Shown here: in pieces, positions 7,831 through 32,500 of the stretch
Layout of the letters: every line of letters starts with the position of its first letter
Position numbering within the stretch: the first letter of the stretch is position 1
Notes under the pieces: generated by a model
Told to the model about the DNA's origin: nothing
The model's database searches: none
What the model saw: only the letters and a program-made list of their open reading frames with translations
Translations under genes and position numbers: made by a program
Assembly: GCA_964016885.1 (NCBI GenBank)
Contig: OZ024756.1
Location: 3,038,001 to 3,102,000, forward strand
Direction: 5' to 3'
Length of the DNA stretch: 64,000 nt
From: Eledone cirrhosa
Lineage: Eukaryota

Positions 7831-8388
7831 TGTAGATAAATCTACCAACAGTTTACGGTAGTGTCCAATACGTATGAAGAACTCAATGTAATCCGGATAT
7901 CATGGAAAGAAGAGATGCATTCAAAAATCACTTTCGATGAAAGATAAACGGAATACAGAGTCAAGATAAAATATTAAAAAAATAATGAATAAAACAATGA
8001 AACAGTTCCTTATATTAAACAAAAAAAGTTCATTATTTAACGATCGTTTCTAGGACATATATGTGTTAGAATTGGCATGCATATTCAAAAGATCTACGTA
8101 CAAAATTATACAAAATTATACAAACTATCAAATAGAATATACATACCAACACATACATATGCCGTCTTCAGAAATAATATTTCTGAAGACGGCATATGTA
8201 TGTGTTGGTATGTATATTCTATTTGATAGTTTGTATAATTTTGTATAATTTTGTACATAGATCTTTTGTATATGCATGCCAATTCTAACACATATATGTC
8301 CTAGAAACGATCGTCAAATAATGAACTTTTTTTGTTTAATATAAGGAACTGTTTCATTGTTTTATTCATTATTTTTTTAATATTTTAT
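7831..8388. mobile_element. (TA)n-flanked palindromic insertion, family A (Penelope-pLTR-like)
   Basis: Arm ~8180-8388 is the reverse complement of ~7966-8174, centred on TCTTCAGAAATAATATTTCTGAAGA. Homologous to 8885-9213 and 10592-11133. Confidence 0.7.
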
Positions 8389-8426
8389 ATATATATATAT
8401 ATATATATATATATATATATATATAT

Positions 8427-8835
8427 CCGGGAGAGATGACCCCTTAGCCTATTTCAAGGCAGAATTCTAGAAGGAAAACTCTGATATAACACCTGCAACC
8501 CTGATGGTATCCAATGATGTTGACTTGTTCTTCTTTTTGGTAAATATCATCATGGTCAAGAGAGAGGGACTGGCTTTGTGCAGTGCCTTTGCTCACTATA
8601 AAAGCTTCACGGCACAGGCATTGCTTTATATCTGGAGATCTCTCTGCACTTGTCGTCACATGGTACCATGGGCCCAGCACTATGTGTCAATGGTTGTAAC
8701 AAGTGTAGTATTTGTACCAGAGTTTTCAAGTCGCTGGCTGGACTAAAAAGTCACACTCGTTCAGCGCATCGGTAGGGGTTCTCCTACATGGATATAAAGT
8801 AGTGGCCGTACTCGAAAACGAGTTGGCAGCCACCA
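8427..8835. mobile_element. Unclassified ~400-550 bp non-coding interspersed repeat, copy 1
   Basis: High similarity to 13792-14200 and 39284-39835. Terminal hairpin AGTGGC..CTCGAAAACGAG..GCCACC abuts the microsatellite. Confidence 0.8.
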
Positions 8836-8884
8836 TATATATATATATATATATATAAATATATATATATATATATATATATAT

Positions 8885-9213
8885 GTAACTAAATCTACCA
8901 AAATATACGGTAGCGTCCAATCCGTATGAAGAACTCAATGTAATCCAAATATCATGATAAGAGAAGATGTATTCAAAATTTTTTCGATGAAAAGCACAGG
9001 AATACAGAGTCAAGATAAATTAATAAAAATAATGAATAAAAACAAAGAAGCAGTTCCCTATATTAAAAAATTCATCATTTTACGATCATTTCTAGGATAT
9101 ATATGTGTGTTGGTATGTATATCATATAGATCTATGTAAACATTTTACAAACTATCAGAGGGAATATACATACCTACACATATATATGCTATCTTCAGAA
9201 ATAATCATTTAAT
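8885..9213 (-). mobile_element. Family A element, single non-palindromic copy
   Basis: Homologous to 7831-8176; flanked by (TA)n. Confidence 0.7.
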
Positions 9214-9324
9214 ATATATATATATATATAAATATAAAAACAAATAACGAAACGAAATTAAATTTCGTTTCGCTTCTAACTCACTTTTGTATGACTGACG
9301 CTTAAACAAGCCGGAGGATGGGTA

Positions 9325-9369
9325 AATATTGCTGATGAGATGTAATAACATCGAAACTAGTCCAATATT
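9325..9369 (+). ncRNA. Minimal type I hammerhead ribozyme
   Basis: AATATTG-CTGATGA-GATGT(AATA)ACATC-GAAA-CTAG-TC/CAATATT. 7-bp stem I, 5-bp stem II, palindromic ACTAGT stem III, GUC site at 9362. Confidence 0.9.
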
Positions 9370-9793
9370 CCTGTCTGGCCCTCTGGTGAATAGAGGAAAT
9401 GTGTTTCCTTGAAAACCCGTATGACTCTAAAACCCGGTCAGTCTGTGTGGTTACATACAGACTAGCTGACACTCACTGTAAAGTGTCTAGTGAAAAGCTG
9501 AGTACATGTACATATGTATACATGTGTGTATTTATATGCATACTAATACTTCCGTATACATATGTAGATGTACACTTTAACTTAATTGTTTAAGCGTCAG
9601 TCATACAAAAGTGAGTTAGAAGCGAAACGAAATTTAATTTCGTTTCGTTATTTGTTTTTATCGTTTCCGCTGAACCGGTGCGTACAATGACTCACGTTCT
9701 ATGCAAATTAGTCTACCCACTACTAATTTTCATAGAAAAAGCATATAACGATATGTGCTTTTACAATTCTCCAGAGAAGCCGGAAGATGGGTA

Positions 9794-28420: not shown

Positions 28421-28499
28421 ATATATATATATATATATATATATATATATATATATACGATATATTAACAAATGGAAACTATATTTATAAAACCATATT

Positions 28500-28564
28500 T
28501 ATTTCATTATACAAATTTCAAGGACACCAAGTTAAATTATGGTGTGCTTTCATCAGATAAAATA
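28500..28564 (-). ncRNA. Family B hammerhead ribozyme in inverted-pair insert 28458-28800
   Basis: Minus strand TATTTTAT-CTGATGA-AAGCACACCA...TGGTGTCCTT-GAAA-TTTGTA-TA/ATGAAATA. Confidence 0.68.
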
Positions 28565-28899
28565 TAATATAGATCAGTTTTATAAATAAATATTGACATA
28601 CCCTTAACGAATGCGACCATTTCTGTTGGAAGCTCCCGGAAATGGTCGCATTCTTTAAGGGTATGTCAATATGGTTTTATAAATATAGTTTCCATTTGTT
28701 AATATATCGTATTTTTACTCCAATAATTTGTTGAGTGCTTTATATCAGTTATAAAAATATTTGCTTGTTGTATCACAACAATTTAAATAGAACTTCTACA
28801 TATATATAAATATTTTATTAAAATAACAGATTAAAGTTTAGGCAAAGAATCGCTGCTTTCACCCTTAAATTTATTATTATTACTATATATATATATATA

Positions 28900-29112
28900 A
28901 GGAACGATCGACTTTCGTCAAATCGGACCGAGGGAACAATGTTTCCGTTGGTCTTTCCAATTGCTAATACTATCTATCGGTCGCAACTCCAGGTAGAAGG
29001 AGTAAAGTGAAATAACGTGTCTTGCTCAAGGACATAACGCATCGCCTGGTCCAGGAATCGAACTCACAACCTTACGGTTGCGAACCCAATCCTCTAACCA
29101 CTCAGCCACACA
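28900..29112 (-). mobile_element. tRNA-derived SINE (CORE-like), partial; 3' fragment also at ~50990-51112
   Basis: Minus strand GTGGCTGAGTGGTTAGAGG, GAGTTCGATTCC, TCCTTGAGCAAGACAC. Confidence 0.75.
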
Positions 29113-29522
29113 CCTTCACAGATATATATCTATATTTATATATATATATATATATATATTTATATATACATATACACATATATATATATATATATATATA
29201 TATATATATATATATATATATATATATATATATATATATATATATATATATATATATATATATATATATATATATATATATATATATATATATATATATA
29301 TATATATATATATATATATATATATATATATATATATATATATATATATATATATATATATATATATATATATATACGTATATAAATAGGTTTGTATATA
29401 TATATGTATACATATATATATATATATATATACAAACATTTTATATATATATATACACTCATTTTATATATATATATATTAATTCAAAATATTAACAAAA
29501 TAGATATTCTTGTGATCAATTA

Positions 29523-29589
29523 TATTTTATTATACATATTTCAGAGGTACTGAGTTTAGTTCAACAGTACGTCCTCATCAGATAAAATA
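29523..29589 (-). ncRNA. Family B hammerhead ribozyme in inverted-pair insert ~29478-29740
   Basis: Minus strand TATTTTAT-CTGATGA-GGACGTACTG...CAGTACCTCT-GAAA-TATGTA-TA/ATAAAATA. Confidence 0.72.
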
Positions 29590-32500
29590 AGATGATGCAT
29601 GACATACCCTGACATAGTAGATGGTTAAGATTCATTCATGGTAGTTGAGTGCTTCCAATCTATTGTAAAACTCATTCTTTGATGTATTCATTGAACCTTG
29701 TTTAACTTTGTATCCCAACAAATTAAATATAACTTCTACATATATATATTATATATATATATATATATATATATATATATGAAAGACGTAAAACAAGAAA
29801 ATTTTAAAAATTAAAAATGTTTAAATTTTCTTATTTTACGTCTTTCCTATAATTGTTCTGCATCCCCCTGCATAGAACCACAAAGGTACTAAGACATAAC
29901 ATATATATTTGCTAGCATGGGTATACATCTGTATACATATGTTGGTAGATATACTAATTCTCTCTCTCTCTATATATATATATATATATATACACATACG
30001 AAAATAAATAGATGAGCCAGCAGGAATTGAAATCGTTATGATGGACTCGGTTCACTGGTGTAATATCACAACTTGGTAGACTTATGAAGTGAGACGGTAG
30101 AATCAAAGTATTGCAACTCTTGATCTCTCTCTGGAAAGATTGTATCAAGTGGCGAGGGTTATATTGATACGGCGTCTTGAATCTCTGTCTGTCTGTCTGT
30201 TTATCTCTCCCCACTCCCTTCTCTCTCTCCCTCTTTTTTCCTCTCTCCGTCTAGCTCTTTCTTTCTCTCTCTTTCTATATTTATATATATATATATATGT
30301 ATGTGTGTGTGTGTGTGTGTATGTGCTTGAGTACATATATATATATATGTATGTGTGTGTGTGTATGTGCTTGTGTACATATATATATATATATATGTGT
30401 GTGTGTGTATGTGCTTGTGTACATATATATATATATATGTGTGTGTGTGTGTGTGTGTGTGTGTATGTGTTTGTGTACATATATATATATATATATGTGT
30501 GTGTGTGTTTGTGTTTGTGTACATATATATATATATAAATATAAGTGTATGTGCGTGTGAATATACATACGTATATATAGAGAGTGGGAAAGAAAGAGAG
30601 GAGAGAAAGAACGAGAGAAAGAGAGAGAGGGAGAAAAGAACGAGAGAAAGAGAGAGAGGGAGAGAGGGAGAAAGGGAGAGAGAGAGAGACAGAGAAAACA
30701 AAACTTACTATGAACAAAGTATTTTACGATTCAAATAATAAGACAATTAGAAGTTGCTAATAGACAATGGTGACGGCCAGATGGAGCCACTAGTCGCTGT
30801 CTATGTGACTGTAGTAGACATGAAGAGGTAGATCTACTTCTATGTTGACCCTAACACTGAATTAATAACTCCTTGCTACGGCGTCTGATAATCTGGCAAA
30901 TCTCCGGTGCCATTATAATGTCATTACACCTTTCTCAAGGAATCACACATCGCCATCTTCAAAGAGTTCCACTCACAAATCTTCGTCCCACTCTCTCTCT
31001 CTCTCTCTCTCTCTCTCTCTCTCTCTCTCTCTCTCTCTCTCTCTCTCTCTCTCTCTCTCTCTCTTTCTCTCTCTCTCTCTCTGTCTCTCTCTCGCTCTCT
31101 GACACACACACAGACATACACACACACATACACAGACACGCGCTCTTCACTCTCTCTCTCTCTGTTATTATTTACACGCCCCTCTTACCCTCTCACTTTC
31201 TCTCTCTCATGTGCGTAGTGTTGTGTGTATATGTATTGTATATATAATATATGTGTATATATATATATATATATATATATATATATATATATATATATAT
31301 ACTTACATACACACAAACATATATATATATATATATACTTACACACACACACACACATATATATATATATATATATATAAATAAATATATATATGTACTT
31401 ACACACACACACACATATATATATACATATATATATATATATATATACTCAATACATATATTATATATTCAATATATATACATATATATATATATCGAGA
31501 GAGAGGCATATACATATATGTTTGTATATATTGTGTATATATATATATATATATATATATATATATATATATATATATATATATATATATATATATATAT
31601 TTATAGGCATGTGTGTCTATGGATATTTAACTCTAACTGGAGATATAATTAGTCATTCGGGGTCATTTTATTTTCTATGGGTTTCTGCTAATCCGAGTTA
31701 TGTGTTAAAAATATTTTAGTTATACACAAAAATGTACACCCGCTACACATACATATATACACAAACACACACACACACATATATATATAAATGTATATGA
31801 ATATACAAATAAGCCCCTATATATACATATATATATATATATATATATATATATATATATATATATATATATATATATATATATATTTATATATATGTAT
31901 ATATATATATATATATATATATATATATATATATATATATATATATATATATATATAGACATAGATACATATATACATATATATACATATATATATATAT
32001 ATATACTTAGATACATATATATACATATATATATATATATATATATATATATATATATATATATATATATATATATATATATATATATATTCATACATAC
32101 ATATATATATATATATATTCATACATACATATATATACATATACATATATACGAGCAAATTATAAACGTAAACAGGTAAGTATGTTTTTGAAACGGTGCG
32201 CGAGTTTGAAATTAGAAATTATAAGCTTTCACCGTATTTTAGACTAAAGAAATTACTAGCCTGATAGTGGGGTTTATAACCCTCAGAGAAATGGAAAAAG
32301 ATGAGTGTTGCCGTACATATATATATATATATATATAATTATATATATATATATGTATATGTATATACATATATGTATATATATATGTATATGTATATAC
32401 ATATATGTATATATATATGTATATGTATATACATATATGTATATATATATATATATATATATATGTATATGTATATACATATATGTATATATATATATAT

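Follow-up and report, generated by a model that had tools for sequence, protein, structure and literature searches.

The window analysed here, a stretch of 64,000 nucleotides from Eledone cirrhosa, carries insertions flanked on both sides by (TA)n in which two arms lie back to back and run outward to unequal ends, raising the question of how two orientations and two different 3' ends come together in one insertion. An inverted arm, a one-sided tail, (TA)n targeting and two reverse transcriptase (RT) start sites have all been published for Penelope-like elements (PLEs), and the core of the phenomenon is therefore known. According to PMC8557442 (Craig et al. 2021), how PLEs form inverted arms with a tail on one side is still an open question, and the first in vitro PLE system accounts for the tail and leaves the pairing unexplained (Frangieh et al. 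2024, PMC11167929).

Two-arm insertions pair one near end with one far end

Fourteen TA-bounded two-arm insertions were found in the window (Table 1), each with one near and one far end, and in 14/14 counted pairs the tail, of ~34-137 nt, extends one side only. The examples named in the initial annotation are all present, with coordinates correct to within a few bases; K was absent from it. Its description of the pairs as inverted palindromes fails for B1 and B3, whose far arms consist of tail entirely or nearly so and were assigned by homology, the two arms of B3 sharing no overlap. Likewise, the fixed ends that it claimed recur in independent copies of A, B and C and at homologous positions in the 469- and 478-bp arrays, but not in C3 and B4, whose off-site ends count against the two-priming model set out below.

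In family A, the near end falls on the same base in 2/2 copies and the far end in 3/3, though the copies are merely 83-92% alike; in family B, the near end lies 50-52 nt past the hammerhead cleavage site in all three cases and the far end recurs within ~1 nt in 3/4; in family C, the near end recurs in 2/2 copies and the far end in 2/3. Wherever the ends are fixed by other copies (four families), 9/9 pairs combine one near with one far end, for which a hand calculation gives a chance of 0.5^9 = 0.002, and the five single-copy pairs all have unequal ends. B4, P (50864-50975), L and X/N were excluded from the pair count as atypical; the halves of L and of X/N are no more alike than in shuffles.

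The two arms of an insertion resemble each other more closely than copies do (98.5-100% vs 91-92% in A; 98% vs 94-96% in C). The far arm is the shorter in all five clearly unequal pairs, as judged from coordinates tabulated by hand, and in four of these (469, B1, B3 and a read-supported joint at 10872-11000) it starts within ~20 nt of the near site and is tail-only.

Table 1. Elements in the window, with strand in brackets and tail length measured past the near end
Element	Position	Arms and structure	Tail (nt)	Motifs
A1	7832..8385	palindromic pair; far arm 7832-8177 (-), near arm 8178-8385 (+); arms 410/417 complementary	137	hammerhead cores 8171(-), 8183(+); tail hairpin 7881-7961(-)
A3	8885..9212	(-); single far arm, family A		hammerhead 9198; tail hairpin 8933-9010
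469 far arm	9234..9309	(-); tail-only, starting at near site; 76/76 complementary to 9586-9661	74	
469-bp tandem retrozyme array	9308..10525	(+); 2.6 units; near-site end		hammerhead 9332
A2	10595..11132	palindromic pair; near arm 10595-10794 (-), far arm 10795-11132 (+); arms 400/401	137	hammerhead 10800; tail hairpin 11003-11083
D	11154..11525	pair; short TA run at centre	~63	U3-A8 hammerheads 11259(-), 11356(+); degenerate hairpin only
B1	15509..15787	far arm (-), tail + ~13 nt; near arm (+)	~100	hammerhead 15687
Further near ends after B1	15824-15879, 15930-16013	(+), (-)		
C1	16125..16375	palindromic pair	34	no hammerhead found; no bulged hairpin
478-bp tandem retrozyme	16435..22238	ten units (-), near-site end 16435; two units (+), far-site end 22238	62	
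N	23193..23766	(+); starts 8 nt ahead of tail hairpin; one 466-nt unit; far-site end		hammerhead 23509; hairpins 23201-23231, 23667-23697
C2	23995..24263	palindromic pair	35	
M1	24316..24558	(+); single far arm		tail hairpin 24462-24487
G	24612..26789	399-nt inverted arms flanking 1.3 kb non-coding interior	~90	hammerheads 24700(-), 26611(+); tail hairpin 26704-26725
K	27968..28073	45-nt hairpin pair	58	no strict bulged hairpin
H	28107..28419	palindromic pair; tail on left	119	no hammerhead in retained part; no strict bulged hairpin
B2	28458..28799	near arm (-); far arm (+) with internal deletion	89	hammerhead 28556; tail hairpin 28717-28736
B3	29480..29739	near arm (-); far arm (+), partial tail starting within hairpin		hammerhead 29581
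I	29781..29900	65-nt hairpin pair; tail may extend to ~29950	54 to first TA run at 29900; ~104 to 29950	bulged hairpin 29855-29878
C3	32154..32316	(-); single arm; end ~27 nt past C far site (exception)		
M2	40319..40561	(-); single far arm; end identical to M1		tail hairpin 40390-40415
B4	40618..40891	(+); shorter tail, small 5' fold-back (exception)		hammerhead 40701
P	50864-50975	atypical		
R	51466..51553	(+); solo tail flanked by two TA runs		hairpin 51483-51505

Outward hammerheads and a shared bulged hairpin

Hammerhead cores occur at 23 sites against 0.02 expected (100 shuffles), and all 23 fall within the described elements or within L and N, facing outward in every pair. The motif is a type I hammerhead on the sense strand of A, B, D, G, L, N, 469 and 478, and no copy was found in what is retained of C, H, I, K, M and R. 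There are 12 matches in 478, one per unit; in 469 the scan lists unit 1, the remaining units being 98-99% alike, and the array matches Rfam Hammerhead_HH9 at E 2.9e-6, below the gathering score. G gave no Rfam ribozyme match. Past the hammerhead, the elements of A, B, D and G end at distances of 50-76 and 140-207 nt. The U3-A8 core of D is a published PLE hammerhead variant. An inward-pointing D was considered after a relaxed-hairpin match on its inward strand and was dropped, since that match is the reverse complement of stem I of the hammerhead, even though D runs on beyond 11301 in some 600 reads per sample.

A bulged hairpin is common to families A, B, G, I, M, N and R, with its stem base 5-9 nt past the near end in 5/5 pairs that carry it; it is absent from C, H, K, 469 and 478, and D has a degenerate form only. 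The strict pattern, which was built from A, B2, G, I, R and Hydra-2_Amil and admitted G-U pairs once M had been seen, gave 11 matches, 10 of them 20-80 nt ahead of a TA junction, where 100 TA-preserving shuffles gave an expectation of 0.21 and a maximum of 2; independent cases come only from N, Hydra-2_Ajap and Hydra-1_Crog, the last of which fails the strict form. With a relaxed pattern there is no overall excess (13 matches vs 10.8 expected), and folding z-scores are modest (-1.0 to -2.8), R adopting another fold in one of the folding windows. By eye, a matching hairpin is seen in the tails of the autonomous Hydra-clade PLEs Hydra-2_Amil and Hydra-2_Ajap, and an imperfect one in Hydra-1_Crog. 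No earlier description of a shared hairpin past the near end was found in the literature searched. The predicted hairpin likely marks the start of a second copying reaction on the same RNA.

When the 131 frames of at least 55 aa in the window were compared with Pfam, none encoded an RT or GIY-YIG domain belonging to the elements, the only matches being RVT_1 in two unrelated LINE-like ORFs and a weak C2H2 in LINE-like family E; the single ORF of an autonomous endonuclease-positive PLE, with telomerase-like RT and GIY-YIG, was not among them, and the interior of G holds no recognisable ORF. A search of a metagenome collection with a 20-nt family A pattern returned two matches, with unlike flanks, which were judged to be chance.

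A proposed model of two priming events

We hold, on balance, that two primings by a (TA)n-targeting PLE, mobilising non-coding 3' ends in trans, are probably the best explanation of these insertions. The inserts are non-coding 3' ends, most of them with an outward hammerhead motif, and such elements likely mobilised them. In this model, the PLE enzyme would cut each strand of the TA run and start two rounds of reverse transcription, likely from a single RNA: one at the far site, the other at the near site, directly 5' of the predicted bulged hairpin. The two cDNAs would extend away from the target and join at their growing ends, giving head-to-head arms and a one-sided tail; a far cDNA halting where the near cDNA began would leave a tail-only arm, and one reading through, or cDNA fold-back, would leave a palindrome. 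Two priming events on one RNA are favoured because tail-only arms cannot be fold-back copies, an argument for which no earlier report was found in the literature searched.

The Penelope-like origin proposed in the initial annotation is supported by the outward hammerheads and by the inverted arm and one-sided tail, as described in PMC8557442 and PMC3846280. Priming of both strands at two RNA positions, which it had also proposed, is favoured by the tail-only arms and has been observed in vitro for the anole PLE, with start sites alike on the top and bottom strands (PMC11167929); this likeness does not alone yield the rule of one near and one far end. For solo families, priming inside an inherited (UA)n run could suffice to fix the far end.

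More tentatively, and with somewhat less than even confidence, we suggest that in Hydra-type PLEs the conserved bulged hairpin is a clade-wide cis signal through which many unrelated non-coding RNAs gain access to one enzyme, and that it sets where a dimeric RT-endonuclease, priming both target strands on one RNA, begins its second, internal priming. If true, this reading would explain the long-unexplained inverted arm with a tail as programmed twin priming. Such a signal, small and portable between RNAs, for an RT that targets microsatellites would account for retrozyme mobilisation and would aid the annotation of abundant short palindromes otherwise scored as microRNA-like hairpins; in Rfam, among the 150 of 455 matches listed for the whole window, the palindromes and microsatellites give microRNA-like matches, all below gathering. 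The one-near-one-far rule, the tail-only arms and the shared hairpin amount to three concrete testable predictions.

Alternative explanations

The centres of A1 and A2 are also compatible with a single priming at the far site, after which the cDNA 3' end folds back with a 3-nt loop and copies itself, the near site then being a DNA-level join at TA-like microhomology and no RNA start. The near-identical arms, the 2-4 nt that 9/11 near junctions have in common with the TA target and the self-priming proposed for comparable palindromes in PMC3846280 would all fit such a process. The 2-4 nt in common with the target also fit the two-priming model. It is unable, however, to yield 469, 478, B1, B3 or the joint at 10872-11000, where near-arm sequence is missing from the far arm, and two RNA start sites were demonstrated in vitro (PMC11167929). 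We regard it as unlikely, although fold-back may still be a route to the perfect palindromes.

Two primings could instead take place on separate RNAs, each subunit of a dimeric enzyme handling one of them and being free to use either site. The anole protein is a predicted dimer (PMC11167929), and L and X/N resemble back-to-back arms of unrelated families, but these could be two insertions in succession, and the exclusively mixed pairs (9/9), the shorter far arms (5/5) and the excess of arm identity over copy identity would be left unexplained, which makes this reading quite improbable.

The initial annotation had gone further in proposing that the self-complementarity of (TA)n enables two-strand priming and that one TA-specific machinery serves all families. 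Every pair does sit in (TA)n, and seven families have one hairpin in common; however, the same structure is found at non-TA targets, in Adineta with a 9-bp TSD (PMC3846280) and in clades including (CA)n-targeting members (PMC8557442), five families (C, H, K, 469 and 478) lack the hairpin, and at least two PLE clades, Naiad and Hydra, target (TA)n (PMC8557442 tables). Family E occupies TA or TATG runs in 4/4 copies, none with an inverted partner, and the 131 frames of the window yielded no autonomous partner. Neither proposal is supported, and we consider this strong form very improbable.

Chimeras formed by fold-back during sequencing or assembly, or DNA transposons of the MITE type bearing terminal inverted repeats, are scarcely credible and largely refuted already: perfect palindromes can arise as artefacts and the runs best covering the elements may be the source sample, but the arms carry substitutions, the centres differ between copies, the hammerheads are oriented, the ends are unequal with an unmatched tail always on one terminus, where a MITE has inverted repeats at both, and raw reads from two further samples (8 and 7, respectively) show the strand switch at the A2 centre. 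In agreement with the initial annotation, the palindromes are not an assembly artefact. The joint at 10872-11000 is covered by 72 and 26 reads in two samples, with a single start per sample and inferred orientation, and the A and D palindromes together by thousands of reads and contigs; read counts refer to joints inside elements, the TA run being masked in the search.

Comparison with known systems

In L1 twin priming, as reportedly put forward by Ostertag and Kazazian in 2001, two target strands prime one RNA and the arms are joined at their 5' ends; the internal priming site is said to be variable and the first priming to occur at poly(A). The window families, in contrast, have two fixed sites, and their arms often overlap, yielding palindromes.

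Published PLE insertions combine a 5'-truncated inverted pLTR copy with a tail of 30-40 nt (Craig et al. 2021, PMC8557442; Arkhipova et al. 2013, PMC3846280), where endonuclease resolution is given as the source of the tail and self-priming as that of the palindromes. The window pairs have the same truncated inverted copy joined head to head, one-end tail, microsatellite bias and palindromic junctions, but are non-coding stumps with tails of 34-137 nt, mostly above the published lengths. As in Hydra-clade PLEs (PMC8557442, section 11 and supplement), they lie in (TA)n with a canonical type I hammerhead near the 3' end, and they have two 3'-end classes past it, which in the Hydra-clade consensi lie at 29-47 nt (10/24) or 87-152 nt (11/24); the same bulged hairpin is seen by eye in the long-ended consensi, and goes unmentioned in the parts of PMC8557442 available to us. 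They differ in having no ORF, and six short window motifs have no exact match in the published PLE consensi of that supplement. The likeness to Hydra tails is structural, and the enzyme serving the hairpin families may belong to the Hydra clade.

In PAc, the Poseidon element of Anolis carolinensis, both strands are cut and extended, and two internal starts bound the tail (PMC11167929). PAc resembles the window elements in having a stem-loop at the start and an uncleaved RNA template, the window inserts reading through the cleavage site; it belongs to another clade, with 5'-ATT as target, and the main text describes neither a pairing of start site with target end nor tail-only arms.

Only 469 and 478 qualify as non-LTR retrozymes: both are tandem repeats of low GC content that lack an ORF and carry a single type I hammerhead in every unit. 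Retrozymes of this class have been proposed to be non-autonomous PLE derivatives (Cervera and de la Pena 2020, PMC7229834; Li et al. 2026, 10.64898/2026.07.22.740005). The word 'inverted' does not occur in the main text of PMC7229834; what sets the two arrays apart from published retrozymes is their fixed near and far ends in (TA)n together with an inverted arm.

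Results

The window is animal DNA dense in repeats, with numerous (TA)n runs. We split it at the TA runs and aligned every piece to its own reverse complement, which recovered the head-to-head inverted pairs described in the initial annotation, with one outward 3′ end at a shorter-reaching (near) site and the other at a longer-reaching (far) site; the far arm exceeds the near site by 34–137 nt, a stretch we call the tail. The ends are also fixed, as had been claimed: the same sites recur in separate insertions of families A, B and C, with C3 and B4 ending off-site, and the 469 and 478 tandem retrozyme arrays, named for unit length in bp, terminate at homologous places. 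In family A, near (2/2) and far (3/3) ends fall on the identical base; in B, near ends lie 50–52 nt past the hammerhead cleavage site (3/3) and far ends agree to within about a base (3/4); C keeps its near site in 2/2 and its far site in 2/3 cases. Setting aside B4, P, L and X/N as atypical, all nine pairs from families whose other copies fix both sites combine one near with one far end, and unequal ends also occur in five single-copy pairs. Because the two arms of an insertion resemble each other more closely (A, 200/203 and 196/196; C, 99/101 and 104/106) than copies of a family do (A, 177/194 and 178/194; C, 95–97/101), and pair centres differ from copy to copy, each inverted half arose at insertion, from a single source. 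Ten of 24 far or single ends close in AC directly ahead of the TA run; this may parallel the AC-rich region where starts were reported in vitro, or reflect common TA-run variants.

The palindromes were further examined in reads, by comparison with 10795–11305 (far arm of A2 plus near arm of family D, TA run left out). We used four of 23 listed runs; two, both of one study, consist of raw RAD reads of other samples under the same species label, and one is a contig set possibly from the source sample and hence not independent. The RAD samples gave 6755 and 6780 matching reads, so A and D are abundant. The strand switch at the A2 centre, 10795, was found in both (8 reads with 2 starts; 7 reads with 6 starts), as were a second switch at 10795–10801 (2 and 3 reads) and the D joints 11232–11293 (122 and 150 reads) and 11300–11301 (21 and 26 reads, plus 4 contigs). 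Another joint, 10872–11000 (72 and 26 reads), has a single start per sample, as a restriction site would produce; since its short side of 25 nt equals the distance between the read start near 10896 and 10872, we infer a head-to-head join with one arm begun at the near site. The feature is real.

In 469, B1, B3 and the 10872–11000 joint, no more than about 20 nt separates the start of the far arm from the near site, which makes this arm tail only, while the near arm extends upstream by 124–1218 nt; the 478 array has two units in its far arm vs ten in its near arm. Where the arms differ clearly in length, the far one is the shorter in 5/5 pairs (0.5^5 = 0.03, calculated by hand); the same probably holds for G, the interior of which was assigned by T-richness. 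Fold-back copying cannot derive either arm from the other, so tail-only arms require two priming events, and the halt at the near site, expected if both share one RNA template, suggests the following scheme. Two primings would occur on one RNA, the far cDNA halting at the near site to leave a tail-only arm; a perfect palindrome, as in A, C, D and H, would need one of three further steps: read-through past the near site, use of another RNA, or fold-back.

A type I hammerhead scan found 23 sites vs 0.02 in 100 shuffles, located in A, B, 469, 478, L and N and on the outward strand in each pair. A second scan added G and both D arms, the latter with a U3-A8 core (2 matches; 0 in 40 shuffles), a published variant of Penelope-like element (PLE) hammerheads (PMC4209133). 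In Rfam, the 469 motif has a match to HH9 (E 2.9e-6) that falls below the gathering score; no hammerhead was found in the retained parts of C, H, I, K, M and R. The autonomous partner sought for these inserts, with reverse transcriptase and GIY-YIG, did not appear, as a search of 131 frames in the window revealed no PLE ORF. Given this and the outward hammerheads, the inserts are non-coding ends and retrozyme-type arrays bearing the PLE insertion signature.

The tails of A, B2, G, I, M, N and R share a bulged hairpin: a four-pair stem (RYTC with GARY) is followed by an upper stem of 3–6 pairs and a loop of 4–63 nt, and the 3′ strand carries a 2-nt bulge. The pattern was derived from five of its seven families plus the consensus Hydra-2_Amil of the PLE clade Hydra, and widened once M had been seen; the independent cases are N, a scan match, and two consensi read after it had been set down, of which, judged by eye, Hydra-2_Ajap fits and Hydra-1_Crog departs by one mismatch and a different bulge. 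The final pattern gave 11 matches, 10 of them 20–80 nt ahead of a TA junction, vs 0.21 (maximum 2) in 100 TA-preserving shuffles; the first, stricter one gave 8 vs 0.88, and a looser one no overall enrichment in the window. The stem begins 5–9 nt past the near end in 5/5 hairpin-bearing pairs, and it belongs to the minimum-energy fold in 6/7 short windows, at modest z-scores (−1.0 to −2.8). The other three new Hydra consensi end 35–46 nt past the hammerhead, short of the hairpin's place. Across 24 Hydra families, the 3′ end follows cleavage by 29–47 nt (10), 62–69 (2), 87–152 (11) or 354 (1); in A, B, D and G, near ends lie at 50–76 nt and far ends at 140–207 nt. Hairpin and end distances together suggest that the partners are of Hydra type and that tails in that clade exceed 30–40 nt. 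The hairpin is absent from C, H, K, 469 and 478 and degenerate in D, so the families fall into at least two signal classes, and the single machinery proposed for all of them is unlikely.

Further features of the window
Feature	Position	Observation
Family A hammerheads	8183-8315, 10800-10934, 9081-9198	Stem II about 100-116 nt; all three copies 5′-truncated ≤ ~12 nt upstream of core, at stem I base
L	27435-27901	Unlike hammerheads back to back, 27636 (-) and 27753 (+); TA runs either side; no likeness found between halves; possibly a mixed-family pair
Arm beside N	22807-23192 (-)	R-like, one-mismatch hairpin; head to head with unrelated N (23193-23766); possible second mixed pair
Insertion in that arm	~22909-23092	Short; 8-bp target duplication, CAG...CTG ends; presumably a hAT-type MITE
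P	50864-50975	Small pair, TA run at centre; both ends close in same 7 bases; near/far ambiguous
478 pair centre	21272-21291	~20 extra bases of short re-copied pieces, resembling a template-jump junction
469/478 hairpin	9580-9600 (469), 21690-21710 (478)	Different short hairpin spanning near site; one compensatory change (by eye; folded for 478 only)
Family E	8427-8834, 13792-14199, 39445-39835, 49143-49500	5′-truncated LINE-like ends, weak C2H2 finger; end in TA or TATG runs; control
Family J	16022-16091, 27348-27417, 28809-28883, 48250-48310, 51202-51363	One end fixed at TA run, other variable or deleted; no hammerhead or hairpin found
LINE-like RT remnants	32716-33950, 35330-38900	RVT_1, E 1.7e-18 and 2.4e-22; unrelated to pairs
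Element, presumably Helitron-like	48040-48700	CTAG and GC hairpin at one end

Discussion

The central inference of the initial annotation, priming on both strands of the target at two RNA positions, is largely in the literature already, given the published structure, (TA)n bias and two-strand, two-site priming. PLE insertions are described as an inverted 5′-truncated copy whose tail of 30–40 bp is often confined to one end, with (TA)n bias in the PLE clade Naiad and in Hydra, the clade that bears hammerheads, and the mechanism is called open (PMC8557442); the same structure occurs with a 9-bp target duplication, for which self-priming was proposed (PMC3846280). The protein of an anole PLE, for which a dimer is predicted, cuts both strands and extends them, starting on uncleaved RNA at two internal sites that bound the tail (PMC11167929). 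Retrozymes are regarded as non-autonomous PLE derivatives (PMC7229834; 2026 preprint 10.64898/2026.07.22.740005), and one octopus genome holds 31 recently active Penelope-like families (PMC13282606). For its two PLE types, PMC3846280 reports no cross-mobilisation. Self-complementarity of TA, invoked in that inference of the initial annotation, is not needed, because the structure is known at other targets (PMC8557442, PMC3846280); TA-resident family E is unpaired in 4/4 copies. In solo families the fixed far end may be inherited when priming takes place within the (UA)n run that the element itself carries; the far site of 469 and 478, internal and homologous, is a defined one.

What is new thus lies in the shared hairpin and in the tail-only arms, not in the geometry of the pairs itself; within the accessible open-licence PubMed Central and bioRxiv literature, we found no description of a bulged hairpin or of twin priming for PLEs. 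The counterpart of the two-priming scheme is the twin priming of L1, which works alike, but in the present inserts the priming sites are fixed.
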